Part shown: positions 420 to 9,694 of the stretch, in pieces
How positions within the stretch are numbered: position 1 is the first letter of the stretch
Layout of the letters: each line of letters begins with the position of its first letter
Source: a virus
Lineage: Duplodnaviria > Heunggongvirae > Uroviricota > Caudoviricetes
DNA length: 9,694 nucleotides
Virus record (IMG/VR): IMGVR_UViG_2778261203_000001
Strand: one strand, 5' to 3'
The notes under the pieces: generated by a model
The model's input: the letters and a program-made list of their open reading frames with translations, nothing else
Told to the model about the DNA's origin: nothing
Databases searched by the model: none
Position numbers and translations under genes: made by a program

Positions 420-1004
420 TTACTCCGGATATTTAAAAATTACGTAGGTATGCGACGGGCAGAGTTTGTTAAGCACACACTCGACAACGGTGTCGCCCCA
501 GATACGCAGTGCGGAATCACAGGGATCGCCACATGTCATCCAGGTGGTGTTGGTGGCGGCTGGCATGTTGACCTGCCAGTAATACCGCCATTCCGGCGCA
601 TTCACCGCGTCAGTACAGGCCGATGAGCAGGTGAACGTGCTTTTGTCGTATCGCGTGATGGTGGCGTCTGGTCTGCCCAGGGCAGCAAGCTGTGCAAGGT
701 AAAAATCCTCATTGATGCCGCCCGCCAGGTTAACCTTCGCATCCAGTCGTTGCTGACGCTGGCGAAGGGTCTGTGTCCCTGCGGGAATACATTCATCCGG
801 CAGGCCGCACAGACGCTCCCAGCGATTTATCAGTTCGGTGGTGGTGCGCGGATCCAGCTCCCGCATCAGGGCATCCGCACGCTGATGAACGCGGGTTAAT
901 GACGGTGCCGCACCGGCAATCGCCGGATTGCTGGCTGACCACGCCGGACCGGGGGGCAACAGTGCCGACAACAGACGGATGTAATCATCGTTTGTCACGT
1001 CCAT
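420..1004 (-). CDS. Mu gp48 / P2 gpI-like tail-baseplate protein (YmfQ-like, DUF2313 family)
   Basis: 194-aa ORF with ATG at 1004, overlapping the stop of the upstream J-like gene by 10 nt. Sits between a J-like gene and the tail fibre gene as in Mu-type tails. Family assignment from recalled similarity to e14 YmfQ-type proteins. Confidence 0.65.
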
Positions 1005-2053
1005 GAAATCGTCCCCAGTACCGCCAGTTCATTTTTTGCAATGGAGATATTGTCTGCCGGTGCAAACAACTGATGGCTGTATTCCCCGTTCGCACCGGAA
1101 ATCGCCTCACTGATACGCGACACCTTCAGTTCTCCCTGCGGATAACCATCACGCAGCAGGAACGAACGCAACTCGGCGGTGATGGCAGCCCGTATTTCCG
1201 GTGTGTCCGGCGTCACGCGGATATGAAAATCCACTTTATGCGCCACCGGCCTGAAGACATACAAATCAGAGCCTGCCACCGGGGCCAGTGGCCCGATATG
1301 TTGTCTTGCCGCCGTTTCCGTTGATTCTTCCGGAATGGGATTAATCAGGTCACTGCCGGCAATCATCACACCGACAGTTCCCGTTCCCATCCAGTGACGG
1401 TATGTCCATGCGCGGGTAATGCCGGGCACTTCTTTAGCCCAGACGACATAGTCCCCGTCAGCCCCGCCCTGAGGCGTCCAGTAATACCGCTCAATGACGC
1501 GGGCGCGCCACGTTTCCAGATCTTCAGTATCGAATCCGCCAGTCAGGGTATCTGCAACACCGGAAGACGGCAGACGATTCACCGGCGTGACCAGGATTAA
1601 TGCCGTACCGTCGTCAGCGTTACCGACCGCGCCTGCACTTGAGCAAGTGATCGGCACGCGCAGGACACCACCGGAGCTGGTTGCATCAGCAGTTGCCGTG
1701 TATTGAACCAGGTCAGCGCGCTGAATAACACTCCCGGCGGTCACCTTCAGGCCATCGCTGACACCTTCCCAGCGCATATACCCGCTGGCAGCCGTGGCCC
1801 CCTTGCGCGGACACCGTTTCATCGCAGCATGTCGCGCCAGCCAGGACTCATCGCACAGGTCAGGCAGCATGTTCATTGCCAGATAATCGATGTAACCGTA
1901 AACCGTATGCAGAGCCGCCGCATACACCTTTGCCCGCACGTCTTCATCCATGCGCCGGAGCGTGTCGCTGACGTCCAGCCTGGCGAATAAATCGTTACGG
2001 AGCATACTGATATTTTCTGCCAGCGTCGGGCGCTGAAATTCACTGTCCGCCAT
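995..2053 (-). CDS. Baseplate J-like protein (Mu gp47 / P2 gpJ family)
   Basis: 352-aa ORF with ATG at 2053. Size and position (after the W-like gene, before the I-like gene) match baseplate wedge protein J. Start overlaps the upstream gene and stop overlaps the downstream gene, suggesting translational coupling. Confidence 0.75.
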
Positions 2054-2468
2054 GCGTTATCGCACTCCACAGATCATCAAAAGAAATCATTACCGGTCCG
2101 TCACGACGCCAGAGGGTGATACTGTTACCCAGCTCATTAATCCCGGTGCGGCGGATATCCAGATCAATACGGGACACCACGCCGTCATCAATCATCCATT
2201 GCAGGCATTCGCGGATATATCCCCTTACCGTCTGCACCAGTTGATTGGTCAGTTTGCTGCGCTGAAGCAGCCACAGTCGGGAGCCGTAACGGTCATTCTG
2301 TACCGCAGGCCAGGTATCCCCCCACCATCCCATCGGGACGTCGGCGTTGTCATCAGGCTCCGCCCGCCGCCAGGTAAACAGGGAAATCACCACGGCGCGG
2401 GTCAGCGGATCCAGCGGTGCGCTGGCGCAGGTGCGTTTACCGTTCACCGTCAGCCACAGTTCCATCAT
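2040..2468 (-). CDS. Mu gp46 / P2 gpW-like baseplate protein
   Basis: 142-aa ORF beginning ATGATG at 2468; start overlaps the stop of the V-like gene (ATGA). Size and synteny (V-W-J-I order) typical of Mu-like baseplate modules. Confidence 0.7.
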   Translation of the reverse strand: MMELWLTVNGKRTCASAPLDPLTRAVVISLFTWRRAEPDDNADVPMGWWGDTWPAVQNDRYGSRLWLLQRSKLTNQLVQTVRGYIRECLQWMIDDGVVSRIDLDIRRTGINELGNSITLWRRDGPVMISFDDLWSAITHGGQ

Positions 2469-3013
2469 GCCTCCATCGCTTTATCCGGTTTGTCGGTGTT
2501 ACTGCCCTGACCGTTCTCTCTGTGACGATGCCCGTTATAGGCAAGCCGCATCGCTGACATGGTGGTACCGCCGGAGTCGCACAGGTCTTTCACCTGTCCG
2601 GTCACTTCCAGGTCCATTTCAAAACGTGCTCTGGGCGCATTGCGAAACGTGATCGTTTTACCTGCACCGTCCACCACGATCCCCTCCCGGGTCAGCGTCA
2701 CAGACTGCCCCTGATCGTCATAGACAGCCACCTCACCCGTCTGCAGCCCTTTCAGGCGGTAGCGCCGGTCCGACACCGTAACAACCACCGCATGAGAACG
2801 GTCGCCATCCGGAAACAACACCACCGCTTCCGCACCGCTGTTTGCCCTTGCGGTAAAACCGTAGGGTTCAAGATGTTCAATCCCGGCTTTGGGTTCACCG
2901 GCAATCAGGGACACATCCACGGTCTGACATTTCGTGGCGGCACTGATGCTTTTCACCACTGCCCGCCCAATCAGGCCGAGAAGTTGTCGCTGCATGGCTT
3001 CAATCGTCCTCAT
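2465..3013 (-). CDS. Baseplate assembly protein V / central spike (Mu gp45-like)
   Basis: 182-aa ORF with ATG at 3013, overlapping the stop of the upstream chimeric ORF (TGATG). C-terminal segment ...DLCDSGGTTMSAMRLAYNGHRH... resembles the conserved C-terminus of gpV-type spikes (recalled). Confidence 0.7.
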   Translation of the reverse strand: MRTIEAMQRQLLGLIGRAVVKSISAATKCQTVDVSLIAGEPKAGIEHLEPYGFTARANSGAEAVVLFPDGDRSHAVVVTVSDRRYRLKGLQTGEVAVYDDQGQSVTLTREGIVVDGAGKTITFRNAPRARFEMDLEVTGQVKDLCDSGGTTMSAMRLAYNGHRHRENGQGSNTDKPDKAMEA

Positions 3014-3720
3014 CAGAACGGGTCCTCCTGTACTCTGGCTTTTTTCTTTTTCCGCGCGCCGGGGTCTTCGGGTTCAGGCAGATAAGCATCAGGCGGGCCG
3101 ACACGGATTTCCGTCAGGGTGCCGTTCTGGTCCTGAGTAAACGTGACTTCCGAAACAAGCAGTTCGGTATTGTCGAAACCACAGACCGGATCAAAGACAA
3201 TCACCCGCTGGTTGGGCTGCCACAGCGTACCGTTACCCTGTCGCCAGCCCTGCACCACATAGGTGGTTTCATCCGTCCGCGCCGCCCGTTGCCGGGCTTC
3301 AAAGTCAGCACGCGCAATACAGCCAGCCCCCGTGGCCTGCCCTGTCTGCCTGATATACATCGGACGGTAACGGGCAATAAATGCGTCCTCTGTGCGGGCC
3401 CGCAGCGCGGTGGTGGTGGCCTCACCGAAATCATCGTCGTTTCCGGCACGCTGCCCCGCCACCTGGTAAACTGAAAACCGCTCCCGGATACTCTTCTCCG
3501 TATCGCAGGAAAGGATGTTTTCCCCAAGTACCAGCGCGGTATGTGCCCGCGTTGAGCCAATAACATCCCACTTCGAACCATAACCGCGCTGATGACGGGA
3601 TTGTCCTGGCTTGTATTGCTTCCAGCCTTCGCTTTTGTGGCTTTCACAATAGCCTGACGGGTCTGTGGTGGTATGGCGGCAGCCACGAACACGGCAGGCT
3701 TTTGGGATTCGTGATGGCAT
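3013..3720 (-). CDS. Chimeric ORF: HNH endonuclease-like N-terminus fused to a tail/baseplate-hub-like C-terminus (probable deletion scar; may be a pseudogene)
   Basis: ATG at 3720 preceded by GGAG; the ORF track extends to a TTG at 3819. N-terminus MPSRIPKACRVRGCRHTTTDPSGYCESH...RGYGSKW matches the start of phage HNH endonucleases, but the second Cys pair and the His-Asn-His core expected after RGYGxxW are absent. The remaining ~180 aa is unrelated and is translationally coupled to the V-like gene, where a gp44/gpD-type hub gene would normally sit. Confidence 0.5.
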   Translation of the reverse strand: MPSRIPKACRVRGCRHTTTDPSGYCESHKSEGWKQYKPGQSRHQRGYGSKWDVIGSTRAHTALVLGENILSCDTEKSIRERFSVYQVAGQRAGNDDDFGEATTTALRARTEDAFIARYRPMYIRQTGQATGAGCIARADFEARQRAARTDETTYVVQGWRQGNGTLWQPNQRVIVFDPVCGFDNTELLVSEVTFTQDQNGTLTEIRVGPPDAYLPEPEDPGARKKKKARVQEDPF

Positions 3721-3817
3721 ATGTACTCCAATGAAGAAGCCACCGACATAGCCTCCTCCATTCATCGTGAAACTATTTTCATCTACCCAGTAATGAATTC
3801 TTTGTAGAGTTGTGATC

Positions 3818-3840
3818 AATACAACTCACTAATGGAGAGG
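3818..3840 (+). promoter_or_regulatory. T7-class single-subunit RNAP promoter-like motif
   Basis: AATACAACTCACTAATGGAGAGG against the T7 consensus TAATACGACTCACTATAGGGAGA: 13 of 14 positions match over -16 to -3 (the ACTCACTA core is identical), but the -2/-1 TA is AT and the initiating region diverges. Confidence 0.25.
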
Positions 3841-3862
3841 CTTGTCCAACACGTTGGACAAG
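3841..3862. repeat. Perfect 10-bp inverted repeat CTTGTCCAAC-AC-GTTGGACAAG (operator-like; as RNA a hairpin followed by a T-rich tract on the plus strand)
   Basis: Arms at 3841-3850 and 3853-3862 are exact reverse complements; followed on the plus strand by AGTTTCCTGTTTGATTT. Confidence 0.9.
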
Positions 3863-3873
3863 TTTCCTGTTTG

Positions 3874-3896
3874 ATTTACTGGACACTATAGAAGGA
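3874..3896 (+). promoter_or_regulatory. SP6-class single-subunit RNAP promoter-like motif
   Basis: ATTTACTGGACACTATAGAAGGA against the SP6 promoter ATTTAGGTGACACTATAGAAGAG: 18 of 23 match, including an identical 13-mer GACACTATAGAAG (-9 to +4) and the ATTTA at -17 to -13. The three upstream mismatches fall at -12 to -10. Confidence 0.35.
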
Positions 3897-3942
3897 CAGA
3901 ATGCCTTCATCACTCGAATAACATCAATTAAGGAGGTTCAAC

Positions 3943-4065
3943 ATGTTTCATTCCACAAATCATCAGGCTGTAATTATGGCTGCATCAGCTTGTGCCACAG
4001 ACCTTTTCCGCTTCACTTTGAGCCTGATTCATTTCTACCTGACCGGCTCGCCTCTATCTTTTTAA
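3943..4065 (+). CDS. Hypothetical small protein (40 aa)
   Basis: ATG at 3943 preceded by AAGGAGG with a 6-nt spacer; translation MFHSTNHQAVIMAASACATDLFRFTLSLIHFYLTGSPLSF, stop TAA at 4063-4065. Lies 52 nt downstream of the predicted +1 of the SP6-like motif. Too short for the ORF track; no homolog recognised. Confidence 0.3.
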   Translation: MFHSTNHQAVIMAASACATDLFRFTLSLIHFYLTGSPLSF

Positions 4066-4245
4066 TCCCCGCTTTATCCAAATTGCATTGCCAGAATGCC
4101 GACAACAGACTGACATTCAAATCCTGACTACCTCCAATAGTCTGACCGTACACCTATATAGTTTTAATTTTCATCAATCCATTTAACTATCGTTTAATTG
4201 TTGTCACATAGGATTCTGCCGTTTTTAACAATGCAGGATAATAAG

Positions 4246-4539
4246 ATGAAAAAAATGTTGTTTTCTGCCGCTCTGGCAATGCTTATTACAGGATGTGCTC
4301 AACAGACGTTTACTGTTGGAAACAAACCGACAGCAGTAACACCAAAGGAAACCATCACCCATCATTTCTTCGTTTCGGGAATTGGACAGGAGAAAACTGT
4401 TGATGCAGCCAAAATTTGTGGCGGCGCAGAAAATGTGGTTAAAACAGAAACCCAGCAAACATTCGTAAATGGATTGCTCGGTTTTATTACTTTAGGCATT
4501 TATACTCCGCTGGAAGCGCGGGTGTATTGCTCACAATAA
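4246..4539 (+). CDS. bor: Bor lipoprotein (lambda Bor / Iss family, serum-resistance-associated outer membrane lipoprotein)
   Basis: ATG at 4246 (MKKMLFSAALAMLITGC...) with AGGA upstream; 97 aa, lipobox LITGC. Near-identical by recollection to lambda Bor (...ETITHHFFVSGIGQ.KTVDAAKICGGAENVVKTETQQTFVNGLLGFITLGIYTPLEARVYCSQ). The track ORF from 4198 is an upstream extension. Confidence 0.9.
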   Translation: MKKMLFSAALAMLITGCAQQTFTVGNKPTAVTPKETITHHFFVSGIGQEKTVDAAKICGGAENVVKTETQQTFVNGLLGFITLGIYTPLEARVYCSQ

Positions 4540-5032: not shown

Positions 5033-5526
5033 TGTTGCCCCCACAAACAGACTTCACGCTCAATCTCACGACGAGTCATCAGGCCTTTCCATTGCTTACC
5101 GCCAGCGTATGTCCAGCGACGCAGCTGATCACATGCGCCTTTGATATCGCCCTGGTTTATTTTGCGAAGAAGCGTCGATGTTCTAAAATTGCCAGCACCC
5201 ACGTTGTAAACGAATGAGTAAAGAGCGCCGCGCGTTGTTTCCGGTATATCGACTTTGATATACGGGTTAATTTGTCTGGCGACAGTGGCAAGGTCTTTAT
5301 TCAAGAGTGCTTTGCATTCTGCTTTGGTATACGTTTTACCGAGCATGATGTCTTTTCCGGTGTGTCCGTGACATACAGTCCATACACCAACAATATCTTT
5401 GTATGGTATGTAGCTGACACCTTCCAGACCATCGTTACCACTTGGGCCAGTGATTAACACTGATGCTATAGCAATTGCTCCGCCACCAATAGCAGCAGCA
5501 ACGGCTTTTCGTAATGATGGAGGCAT
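5029..5526 (-). CDS. R: SAR endolysin (phage-21 R21 / RrrD-type lysozyme with N-terminal signal-anchor-release domain)
   Basis: 165 aa. N-terminal Gly/Ala-rich weakly hydrophobic segment ([20 protein letters not shown]) followed by a lysozyme catalytic region (..[23 protein letters not shown]..). ATG overlaps the holin stop (TAATG). Confidence 0.9.
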
Positions 5527-6313: not shown

Positions 6314-7411
6314 ATGAAAAAATTAACAGTGGCAATTTCTGCTGTAGCTGCATCAGTACTGATGGCGATGTCTGCTCAGGCAGCTGAAATTTATAATAAA
6401 GACAGTAACAAGCTGGATCTGTACGGGAAAGTTAATGCTAAGCACTACTTCTCCTCTAATGATGCAGATGATGGTGATACTACTTATGCCCGTCTTGGCT
6501 TCAAAGGTGAAACCCAAATCAACGATCAACTGACTGGTTTCGGTCAGTGGGAATATGAATTCAAAGGCAACCGCGCTGAATCTCAAGGTTCCTCCAAAGA
6601 TAAAACCCGTCTTGCCTTCGCTGGCCTGAAATTCGGTGACTACGGCTCCATCGATTACGGCCGTAACTACGGTGTAGCATACGACATCGGTGCGTGGACT
6701 GACGTCCTGCCAGAATTCGGTGGTGACACTTGGACTCAAACCGACGTGTTCATGACTCAACGTGCAACTGGTGTTGCAACCTATCGTAACAACGACTTCT
6801 TTGGTCTGGTTGATGGTCTGAACTTTGCTGCTCAGTACCAAGGCAAAAACGATCGTAGCGATTTCGATAACTACACTGAAGGTAACGGTGATGGCTTCGG
6901 TTTCTCTGCTACCTATGAATACGAAGGATTCGGTATCGGTGCAACTTATGCGAAATCTGATCGTACCGACACTCAAGTTAATGCAGGGAAAGTTCTTCCT
7001 GAAGTATTTGCTTCCGGTAAAAATGCAGAAGTTTGGGCCGCAGGTCTGAAATATGACGCTAACAACATTTACCTGGCCACTACCTATTCTGAAACCCAGA
7101 ATATGACTGTATTTGCTGATCACTTCGTTGCTAATAAAGCCCAAAACTTCGAAGCTGTTGCACAATATCAGTTCGATTTCGGTCTGCGTCCGTCCGTTGC
7201 TTACCTGCAATCTAAAGGTAAGGATCTTGGAGTATGGGGCGATCAGGACTTAGTCAAATATGTTGATGTAGGTGCAACCTATTACTTCAACAAAAATATG
7301 TCTACTTTCGTTGATTACAAAATCAACCTGCTTGACAAAAATGACTTCACTAAAGCACTCGGTGTAAGCACTGATGACATCGTTGCTGTAGGTCTGGTTT
7401 ACCAGTTCTAA
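6314..7411 (+). CDS. nmpC: General porin of the OmpC/OmpF/PhoE family, phage-borne (NmpC / Lc type)
   Basis: 365 aa starting [23 protein letters not shown]|AEIYNKD (signal peptide), C-terminus ...VAVGLVYQF with terminal Phe typical of outer-membrane beta-barrels. Matches NmpC of DLP12 by recollection. Start at 6314 preferred over the track's upstream ATG at 6254. Confidence 0.9.
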
Positions 7412-7600: not shown

Positions 7601-7984
7601 TTAATTAGAGTTATTAACAACGATATCCATCTCTAACCGGATATCTAATGCCATTAACATCCCTTCAATTATGCCCTCAGCCTTCTGTAACCTTTTCCCG
7701 ATATAACCATCAGAGCAGCAATGCTTACCTGCCAGTGACATGAATGTCATACCGACTACATAATAATCTACTAATAAATCGTGCAAATCGCTGTTGTTCT
7801 TTTTCAGACGGGCCATGCACCCGCAAATGATCATCGCGTCATCGTCACAACATTGCGGGCGAGATTTTACTTTTGAAGTAATTAATCCCTTAAAACCGGC
7901 GGCAATGGACGACCAGGTCACATCTTCATGATTATTAGCCGCCCACGCTCCCCAACGCTCAAGAACCATCTGAATATCACGCAT
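7601..7984 (-). CDS. quuD: Late-gene antiterminator Q (small Q21/QuuD-type)
   Basis: 127 aa from ATG at 7984 ([24 protein letters not shown]...), preceded by GGAG; Cys-rich motifs [12 protein letters not shown] and HCC. The track ORF begins at an upstream TTG (7999). Matches DLP12 QuuD by recollection. Confidence 0.8.
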
Positions 7985-8069: not shown

Positions 8070-8210
8070 TCATACTCCTGCTCCTGTCAGGGTTTTGGCG
8101 TAATTCTTCAGTATTCGGTAATCGGTCAAAACAGAACCGGGGAAACGATATAAGCGCAGACGCCCCCAGCGGTGGCGAAGAAGTTCTGCCATATTAAACT
8201 CAAACATCAT
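8070..8210 (-). CDS. ylcG: YlcG-like small protein (46 aa)
   Basis: Translated by hand: [46 protein letters not shown]. The ATG overlaps the rusA stop (ATGA). Below the ORF-track length cutoff. Confidence 0.7.
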
Positions 8211-8569
8211 TCATTCCCCATTTCGGTGATGGTCAGTTCCAGCCTCCCACCTTTGGTAACAAGCATCTTCACAACGCGGTAATCAACGACCTGAGCATCA
8301 TCCAGCCAGAAACCTGCTTTAGTGAGTGCGTCAAAAGCGGCTTTTTGCAGATTATCCAGGTCACGGCGACGGCGATCCGGCATGTGGCACTCAATGCGGA
8401 TTTTCACAGGCATAGCCAGGCCGATATCCAGCATTGCGTTTTTAATGATTCGGGCGACGTTATCGCGGTATGCCTGCCCCTCTGCGCTGACGTGCGTGCG
8501 CCCGCGATTATGGCGGTAATAGCGATTATTGCTCGGAGGCCAGGGTAATGTGATGCTGTAGGTATTCAC
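8207..8569 (-). CDS. rusA: RusA Holliday junction resolvase
   Basis: 120 aa, [46 protein letters not shown]...[38 protein letters not shown]...; acidic catalytic residues in the DLDN and DDAQ motifs. Matches DLP12/phage 82 RusA by recollection. Confidence 0.9.
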
Positions 8570-8856
8570 GCCTTAATAACCCCCTCTTTCAGCCAGATAA
8601 CCTGTGTTCTCGCCATACCTTCCAGCGCGCATTCTTTTGCATATCCAGCGTCAACAAAATGCGTGCGGCGGTCGATTTCGTCGTGGCAGGCAGAACATGC
8701 AATGGTGGCAATCAGGTCTGGCGGTTTCGTACCGGTGCCGCACAATCCAGTCAGCCGGATATGTGCCAGTACAGACGTTTCAGGGTTGCCATTACATACG
8801 CCAGGGATTCTTACCTGGCATTCCCGACCACGCGCTGCTTTTCTCAAATCAGCCAT
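8566..8856 (-). CDS. ybcO: YbcO-like zinc-binding putative nuclease (DUF1364)
   Basis: 96 aa from ATG at 8856 ([28 protein letters not shown]...[11 protein letters not shown]...), with AGGAGG RBS. The track ORF is extended upstream to 8895. Cys-rich CxVRIPGVC...CSAC pattern. Confidence 0.8.
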
Positions 8857-9019
8857 GACTCCTCCTTGCTGCCAGTCGCAACCATTTTTTATCAACCAAG
8901 CTGGCGGTATATCCGAGCAGTGTTGGTATTTCGGATGGCTTCAGCTCAGGTTTACGCTTACGACGATTTGGTACTCTGTAGATGTGTCCGTTCATGACAC
9001 GAATAAGCGGTGTAGCCAT
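8849..9019 (-). CDS. ninE: NinE
   Basis: 56 aa from the internal ATG at 9019 ([56 protein letters not shown]). Start overlaps the ybcN-like stop (TAATG); the 3' end overlaps the ybcO start by 8 nt. Confidence 0.8.
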   Translation of the reverse strand: MATPLIRVMNGHIYRVPNRRKRKPELKPSEIPTLLGYTASLVDKKWLRLAARRSHG

Positions 9020-9474
9020 TACGCCTCCTGCTTGTCGCGCAGCAGCTGGAACTCGCAGCTCTGTGGAATAGTCAGGTGGCAACCAATATTCATCGCCCAG
9101 GCTTCAACCTTACACAGGAAGACATACATCTCTCCGGTATCAAGATCGGAGGTATGGCGTAACGACTGGATAGTGGTGATATCACCGGTTACGACATCAA
9201 CCAGGTCTTTGGTTTCATAACCGAGATATGTGTGTTTGAGAGCATCTTTTACCCAAGCTGGAGTGGCGAACGTTTTACCCCTGCTGATGAGGTATTCACT
9301 GATTTCGCTGTACCACATGTGGCTGAGTGCATTCTGGGAAAGACTGCGTTTCTCACGCCACGGTTTAAGCACCATGCGAAAGCATTTGCCCTCCTCCAGA
9401 TAAGGCTGGATCTGCCGACCGATAGCGGTGAAGTTGCCGCGATGTAATTTGATGCCGTCTTGTGAGAGGTTCAC
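9019..9474 (-). CDS. ybcN: YbcN-like nin-region protein (151 aa)
   Basis: GTG start at 9474 preceded by GGAGGGGAAGC; [30 protein letters not shown]... First gene of the coupled ybcN-ninE-ybcO-rusA-ylcG chain. Identity recalled from DLP12. Confidence 0.75.
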
Positions 9475-9567
9475 GCTTCCCCTCCGCAGAGGTCAAACGC
9501 TAGATGCAAAGAATTGCAGGTGCATTTCTGCATCTGTGAAGGGAGAAGAGAGTTTGGATTGTATGTG

Positions 9568-9694
9568 TGGATTTGCCCCTATATTTCCAGACACCTGTTA
9601 TCACTTAACCCATTACTGGCCTGCTGCCGCAGATATTCCCGTGGCGAGCGATAACCCAGTGCACTATGCGGGTGCCATTCGTTATAATGCTCGA
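9568..9694 (-). mobile_element. IS2, right terminal ~127 bp including the terminal inverted repeat (partial; continues past window end)
   Basis: Minus-strand reading ends ...TAATGGGTTAAGTGATAACAGGTGTCTGGAAATATAGGGGCAAATCCA, which matches the recalled IS2 right end (...GGGGCAAATCCA terminus) with a few substitutions. Confidence 0.85.
9579..9694 (-). CDS. insD: IS2 transposase (InsD / OrfB) C-terminal fragment, 5' partial
   Basis: Minus-strand translation ...[37 protein letters not shown] with stop at 9579-9581; matches the recalled C-terminus of the IS2 transposase. Confidence 0.8.

Follow-up and report, generated by a model that had tools for sequence, protein, structure and literature searches.

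The nin-type operon and the IS2 end of the contig

The stretch of DNA analysed here (9694 bp, the window in what follows) is the whole of the draft contig NMNN01000048.1 from the E. coli assembly GCA_002468085.1, as identified by a look-up with the exact RusA sequence; the locus taken from the contig record (L027) and the window are identical at 5488 of 5488 bases. In the left-hand part, the minus strand (420-3819) has Mu-like baseplate genes, i.e., a truncated GpP/gp44-like ORF, Gp45, GP46, Baseplate_J and Gp48. This module is joined near 3560-4200 to a DLP12-type bor-rzpD-rrrD-essD lysis cassette, and the resulting mosaic of myovirus-tail and lambdoid cryptic prophage is common only in part to strains G4/9 and LR-46. 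The porin gene of DLP12 (nmpC-type; 365 aa, starting with MKKLTV; 6314-7411, plus strand) is intact and identical to WP_000737280.1; the K-12 copy of this gene is interrupted by IS5. Scans for Rfam families and tRNAs gave no matches in the window.

The right-hand part of the window contains a co-directional gene cluster, with the following features:

7601..7984, minus strand: quuD (Q antiterminator, 127 aa), the last gene of the cluster, identical to K-12
8070..8210, minus strand: ylcG (46 aa), identical to K-12
8207..8569, minus strand: rusA (120 aa), P103L relative to K-12
8566..8856, minus strand: ybcO (96 aa), identical to K-12
8849..9019, minus strand: ninE (56 aa), identical to K-12
9019..9474, minus strand: ybcN (NinB-like, 151 aa), GTG start at 9474, identical to K-12
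9479..9485, minus strand: Shine-Dalgarno sequence of ybcN, GGAGGGG, 4 nt before the GTG, read from the sequence
9471..9567, minus strand: remnant of ylcH, the first ORF of the operon (33 codons), here minus its first 5 nt (ATGCG), delimited by K-12 annotation, alignment and the empty site in locus L018

All genes from ybcN through ninE, ybcO, rusA and ylcG to quuD are intact, and their starts and stops overlap or abut. Between 7601 and 9567 a single nucleotide distinguishes the window from E. coli K-12 MG1655, and it accounts for the P103L replacement in RusA (codon 103, in the region of position 8262). In the collection, 44 index blocks list the exact RusA variant. It is a natural allele that has nothing to do with IS2, because the same allele is carried by loci without the element that show 100% identity elsewhere; on these grounds we discarded the idea of a compensatory change linked to the insertion.

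Directly upstream of the ylcH remnant, the contig ends within a mobile element:

9568..9694, minus strand: right end of IS2 (its 3'-terminal 127 bp), 121/127 positions identical to canonical IS2 and 126/127 to the variant found in strain EC05
9568..9608, minus strand: right inverted repeat of IS2 (IRR), 41 bp, with the terminus ...GGGGCAAATCCA
9579..9692, minus strand: C-terminal 37 codons and TAG stop of orfB (insD/TnpB), from translation and NCBIfam NF006918

The terminal nucleotide of the element is 9568, where the plus strand reads TGGATTTGCCCCTATATTTCC... (or TGGATTTGCCCCTATATTTCCAGAC...), the reverse complement of the right terminus of IS2. The length of the repeat is the 41 bp given for the IRR of IS2 (PMC3299598), and the same terminus, ...GGGGCAAATCCA, bounds 14 complete IS2 copies elsewhere. 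Minus-strand positions 9692..9582 encode 37 residues that match positions 265-301 of the 301-position model NF006918, "IS2 transposase TnpB" (E-value 5e-21), and are followed by the TAG at 9581..9579, which lies inside the IRR. The IRR and the orfB end together confirm the element as IS2, a member of the IS3 family. The transposase gene is on the same strand as the operon, and the IRR is the leftward end, facing the operon.

The reference for canonical IS2 was the 1331-bp copy from E. coli EV36. The window differs from it at 6 of 127 positions, with the changes R to Q and C to S in the InsD C-terminus; within the IRR there is one difference from the canonical repeat, at position 9594, and none from the EC05 variant. 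Copies of the window type in EC05 and EcE.ESBL.COL are annotated simply as "IS3 family transposase". This variant is itself mobile, as judged by 5-bp duplications at differing sites.

Insertion into ylcH, the empty site and the contig end

The terminus of IS2 is separated from the start codon of ybcN by 93 bp (9475-9567). The initial annotation had placed an IS2 end about 95 bp upstream of ybcN-ninE-ybcO-rusA, reading outward into these genes, and was right on both counts: the end is real, and the transposase and the operon are co-directional. What had been taken for an intergenic leader, on the other hand, turned out to be the ylcH ORF minus 5 nt. In K-12, ylcH has 33 codons, begins with ATG CGC ACA TAC AAT and overlaps the start of ybcN (GTGA); the identity between the window and K-12 ceases 5 nt past the ylcH ATG, counted from its first base. 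The insertion point is thus 5 nt inside ylcH, directly after ATGCG, and the start codon of ylcH is lost. Since ybcN has a Shine-Dalgarno sequence of its own, its translation would not need ylcH.

Five loci without the element (L018, L020, L023, L024 and L025) are 100% identical to the window up to position 9567. This identity spans as much as 5.36 kb, with a left limit that varies by locus and is furthest at 4207. The identical IS-free locus is carried by strains with the assemblies GCA_049820525.1 and GCA_958430545.1. Beyond 9567, these loci run into the ATG of ylcH, a 116-bp intergenic region, and the genes ybcM (AraC-type), ybcL and ybcK. The comparison with IS-free DLP12-like loci proposed in the initial annotation thereby names the disrupted feature, the start of ylcH. 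The gene strand before the insertion can be read as ...TTTATGCG^CACATACAATCC... (or ...GGGGACGTTTATGCG^CACATACAATCC...), where ^ is the site entered by IS2. The insertion is recent, because IS-free loci exist that are the same at every base over 5.36 kb.

The window holds one IS end only, as had been noted before, since the contig ends after 127 bp of IS2. The other end most probably completes a simple 1331-bp insertion flanked by a 5-bp duplication, for which the predicted sequence is CACAT, and the reciprocal junction would then read ...TTTATGCGCACAT joined to TAGACTGGCCCC... (or ...GGGGACGTTTATGCGCACAT joined to TAGACTGGCCCCCTGAATC...). The ybcM-ylcH intergenic region, with its candidate native promoter and leader hairpin (see below), would now be found on another contig, 1.3 kb further upstream. 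It had also been suggested that the IS might have replaced the upstream regulatory region; this is unlikely, given that all 14 comparator insertions described below are simple ones and that identical IS-free loci exist.

The partial IS2 is a break in a short-read assembly and not a truncated remnant. The contig breaks off within a multi-copy element, and the position of the stop, at 127 bp, probably reflects the k-mer size of the assembler, as is seen at the ends of de Bruijn graph contigs. Truncation of the IS was among the observations said to speak against activation of the operon; with the truncation being the contig end, that objection does not apply. More generally, the case is a reminder that IS fragments at the ends of draft contigs are assembly breaks. 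The same property of the contig, an end exactly 127 bp into a multi-copy repeat, is what one would cite in favor of a chimeric contig end, with the real genome free of IS2 at this site. We regard such an artefact as extremely improbable. The junction is placed exactly at the terminal nucleotide of IS2, as it is in 14 bona fide insertions, and such a precise IRR terminus is not expected from a random chimera; furthermore, an independent complete genome has IS2 in the same orientation only 2 bp away.

Searches with 24-28-mers spanning the flank-IS2 junction found no match in the genome, metagenome and viral contig collections searched, and the exact junction was found solely in the window's own contig. 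A look-up of proteins similar to Mu Gp45, made in pursuit of the other IS end, returned unrelated contexts only. Strain LR-46 has the left-hand mosaic in common with the window, but its IS2-like remnant is a different one, interrupted by IS3 and in the opposite orientation.

IS2 insertions in the same region of other prophages

None of 5426 complete E. coli genomes matches the junction at 99% identity or more, and only one, DXMF6-3R, has a contiguous match across it, at 95% identity. In DXMF6-3R a canonical IS2 is inserted in the same orientation 2 bp further into ylcH, with the duplication CACAC (positions 9558-9567 of the window and 4258-4267 of locus L002). This is an independent event. Two insertions of different variants 2 bp apart suggest that the start codon of ylcH is locally a hot spot for IS2.

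We searched complete E. coli genomes with matched chimeric queries, each composed of 600 bp of the ybcN flank and 600 bp of either end of IS2. The IRR-proximal query found 15 genomes, and the left-end-proximal query found 8 genomes, representing 5 events. An impression that IS2 copies near ybcN are uniformly oriented as in the window was rejected as an ascertainment artefact, produced by a first query that contained the IRR end only. Altogether 14 independent comparator insertions were obtained (strains DXMF6-3R, EV36, EC05, P13-6, STEC306-308, F1022, PEC301, EcE.ESBL.COL, S1-JOR-02-A, EC21Z, S21/H14, CE-O153H30, YZ_2_1 and TOK-001), each exactly 1331 bp long, each with a perfect 5-bp duplication and each at a distinct site. 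Nine are co-directional with the operon; eight of these lie 91, 376, 495, 532, 564, 1007, 1018 and 1151 bp upstream of the ybcN start, and the ninth is inside ybcN. The five opposite ones lie 20 and 146 bp upstream, inside ybcN (two copies) and at the 5' end of ybcO. Operon genes are disrupted in 4 of the 14 comparators, and a stretch of about 170 bp around ylcH contains four events. In the EV36 lineage, a K-12/K1 hybrid laboratory strain (locus L003), the ybcM gene contains an IS2 that lies 376 bp upstream of ybcN and faces the rusA operon.

The operon region is therefore a recurrent target of IS2 in both orientations. With the window included, co-directional and opposite copies stand at 10:5 overall and 9:2 upstream of an intact operon, neither ratio being significant; when the window is left out as the ascertained case, the ratios are 9:5 and 8:2 (two-sided binomial p of about 0.4 and 0.1, respectively). 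The outward excess upstream of intact operons (9:2, or 8:2) would fit weak selection, and the 15 events give no statistically secure indication that outward-facing IS2 is selected for.

Possible transcription from IS2 into the operon and its consequences

The right end of IS2 contains an outward-reading -35 element within the IRR (PMC3219604, PMC3299598). In the IS2 minicircle, this -35 and a -10 from the left end form the junction promoter Pjunc (PMC3219604, PMC3299598), which functions with a 17-bp spacer only (PMC3299598). The resident left-end promoter, PIRL, is weak, has an extended -10 and is repressed by OrfA (PMC3219604, PMC3299598). The hexamers relevant to outward transcription in the window are:

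9584..9589, minus strand: outward -35-like hexamer TGGAAA in the IRR, assigned by the 17-bp spacer rule of Pjunc
9558..9563, minus strand: TACAAT, the nearest -10-like hexamer of the flank, 20 bp from TGGAAA, from the promoter scan

We infer that TGGAAA is the -35 by taking the six bases with which the left end begins (TAGACT) as the -10 of Pjunc. On the minus strand, the junction reads TGGAAATATAGGGGCAAATCCA followed by CACATACAATCC. Spacers of 16, 17 and 18 bp from the putative -35 lead to CACATA, ACATAC and CATACA, with at most 3 of 6 consensus matches and with the final T missing; ACATAC, at the 17-bp spacing, has 1 of 6. In a consensus scan, no hybrid promoter with -35 and -10 at 16-18 bp was found at the junction, the sole candidate being TGGAAA-20 bp-TACAAT, and 8 of 12 matches are not reached by any other junction-spanning pair of hexamers, nor by any complete outward promoter within the 127 bp of IS2 in the window. 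By comparison, the junction in DXMF6-3R reads TGGAAA-18-CACAAT. A hybrid promoter of the type known from ampC is unlikely in the window, because the nearest -10-like hexamer is 20 bp off and Pjunc is dead except at 17 bp. The hybrid-promoter route, one of two ways in which the initial annotation had envisaged activation, thus finds no workable spacing here, and any IS-driven transcription would have to be read-through from the transposase gene. Outward promoter activity of IS2 that was missed by consensus scans may also exist.

No strong terminator, which had been named as an observation that would count against activation, is predicted between the IS2 end and ybcN or further on to rusA; the only structure is a ylcH hairpin with a 5-bp stem and no proper U-run (fold z-score -1.7). 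Inside IS2, likewise, no intrinsic terminator is predicted. In the IS-free locus, a promoter-like sequence, TTGATT-17-CATAAT, is seen 56 nt upstream of the ylcH ATG, although matches of this type are no commoner there than expected by chance. Between this candidate promoter and the ATG there is a perfect 10-bp inverted repeat, GTCACCGGAG-N9-CTCCGGTGAC (positions 2946-2974 of L018), and the 61-nt fold that contains this leader hairpin has a predicted energy of -23.2 kcal/mol (z = -4.2). The repeat could represent a terminator or attenuator similar to tR2, or else an operator that silences the nin-type operon. It is kept in S21, where the upstream module differs, and the IS2 of S21 landed inside it. 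In the window IS2 is downstream of both the candidate native promoter and the hairpin, so that the operon is cut off from any native promoter and IS-derived transcripts would bypass the hairpin.

In K-12, the rusA gene of DLP12 is quiescent as a rule, and upstream insertions of IS2 or IS10 lead to its expression (PMC1636454, PMC10956419), as the initial annotation had stated. Two of them, rus-1 (IS2) and rus-2 (IS10), are suppressors of ruv mutations (Mandal 1993 and Mahdi 1996, as summarized in PMC1636454 and PMC10956419). The presence of IS2 upstream of rusA is, in other words, a well-known kind of event, and the window is one more natural instance of it, in which a DLP12-type prophage has the element upstream of rusA at a distance of about 1 kb. 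What this particular copy does can be understood in several ways. We favor, with a probability of roughly 0.55, an almost neutral insertion into a part of the cryptic prophage that is prone to IS2 entry, with at most weak read-through into the operon. The insertion is most likely the result of target preference in dispensable prophage DNA rather than of selection, as the region is a recurrent target in both orientations. Any IS-driven transcription from ybcN through rusA would then be read-through of the transposase transcript started at the weak, OrfA-repressed PIRL, and we would expect at most a low-level constitutive rise in operon transcription, with no strong switch-on of the rus-1 kind.

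Activation of rusA by the IS2 of the window is nevertheless plausible. In its full form, this interpretation makes the insertion a natural analogue of rus-1, in which outward transcription from IS2, from a promoter in or near the right end or by read-through, substantially switches on ybcN-ninE-ybcO-rusA (as well as ylcG-quuD) and yields active RusA Holliday-junction resolvase. Such an outcome is possible, if somewhat doubtful. The activation of rusA by IS2 and IS10 is documented (PMC1636454, PMC10956419), the orientation in the window presents the outward -35 of the IRR, and the distance of 93 bp resembles that of activating IS2 insertions at acrE. The genes from IS2 to rusA are coupled and intact with no terminator among them, the element is placed downstream of the strong leader hairpin, and the 9:2 excess of orientations upstream of intact operons points the same way. 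These arguments are offset by the geometry of the junction, i.e., TGGAAA and TACAAT at 20 bp with 1 of 6 matches in ACATAC at 17 bp, when the IS2 junction promoter is reported dead at spacers other than 17 bp, and by the weakness and repression of PIRL. The orientation excess is not significant, and opposite copies 20 and 146 bp upstream persist too. Strong activation, moreover, would co-express the Q antiterminator QuuD beside the lysis cassette, which would likely be costly.

A broader version of the same idea sees the DLP12 nin-type leader (the ylcH start and ybcM) as a recurrently selected IS2 landing pad, from which outward copies switch on rusA, ybcN, ybcO and quuD as a standing back-up for Holliday-junction resolution or as a means of prophage-gene activation. 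Its footprints of selection would be the pair of insertions 2 bp apart and the 9:2 orientation ratio seen upstream of intact operons; we consider this version quite unlikely.

The effect might also have the opposite sign. IS2 is a classical polar element, and its insertion moves the candidate promoter TTGATT-17-CATAAT 1331 bp away and removes the start codon of ylcH; with the native promoter displaced, ylcH decapitated and Rho termination taking place in poorly translated orfB, expression of the operon would fall below a wild-type level that is low already. This is unlikely as well, because consensus matches like the candidate native promoter are expected just as often by chance, a strong Shine-Dalgarno sequence precedes ybcN itself and IS2 is without a predicted intrinsic terminator; besides, wild-type rusA is described as quiescent anyway (PMC1636454).

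The likeness to rus-1 consists in the same element, the same prophage operon (1 nt from K-12), an insertion upstream of rusA and an orientation capable of outward transcription. In contrast to rus-1, which is a selected suppressor, the window comes from a natural isolate, with the insertion at ylcH, about 1 kb upstream of rusA. If IS2 does switch on rusA here, the laboratory route to rus suppressors would also arise in wild E. coli, and the loci with and without the element would make a natural near-isogenic pair ready for testing activation. At ampC, where the -35 of IS2 pairs with a resident -10 in a classical hybrid promoter (Jaurin & Normark 1983, as cited in PMC9330008), the right end of IS2 likewise faces a silent or weak gene with the outward -35 in the IRR, but the spacing is 17 bp, as against 20 bp to the -10-like hexamer of the window. 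The silent acrEF operon is activated by insertions of IS2 that lie 86-90 bp upstream of acrE, reportedly via promoters within the IS (Kobayashi 2001; PMC9783932). Here the similarity is in how far the element is from the operon's first gene, and a 5-bp duplication is present at acrEF; those insertions, however, were selected by phenotype and have been shown to raise expression, whereas the insertion in the window arose without selection. The closest relatives are the IS2 insertions in other DLP12-like prophages, which involve the same element and the same region, although all sites are distinct, five copies have the opposite orientation and four lie in operon genes. To these the window adds one data point, making a catalogue of 15 independent IS2 events in or near the operon.
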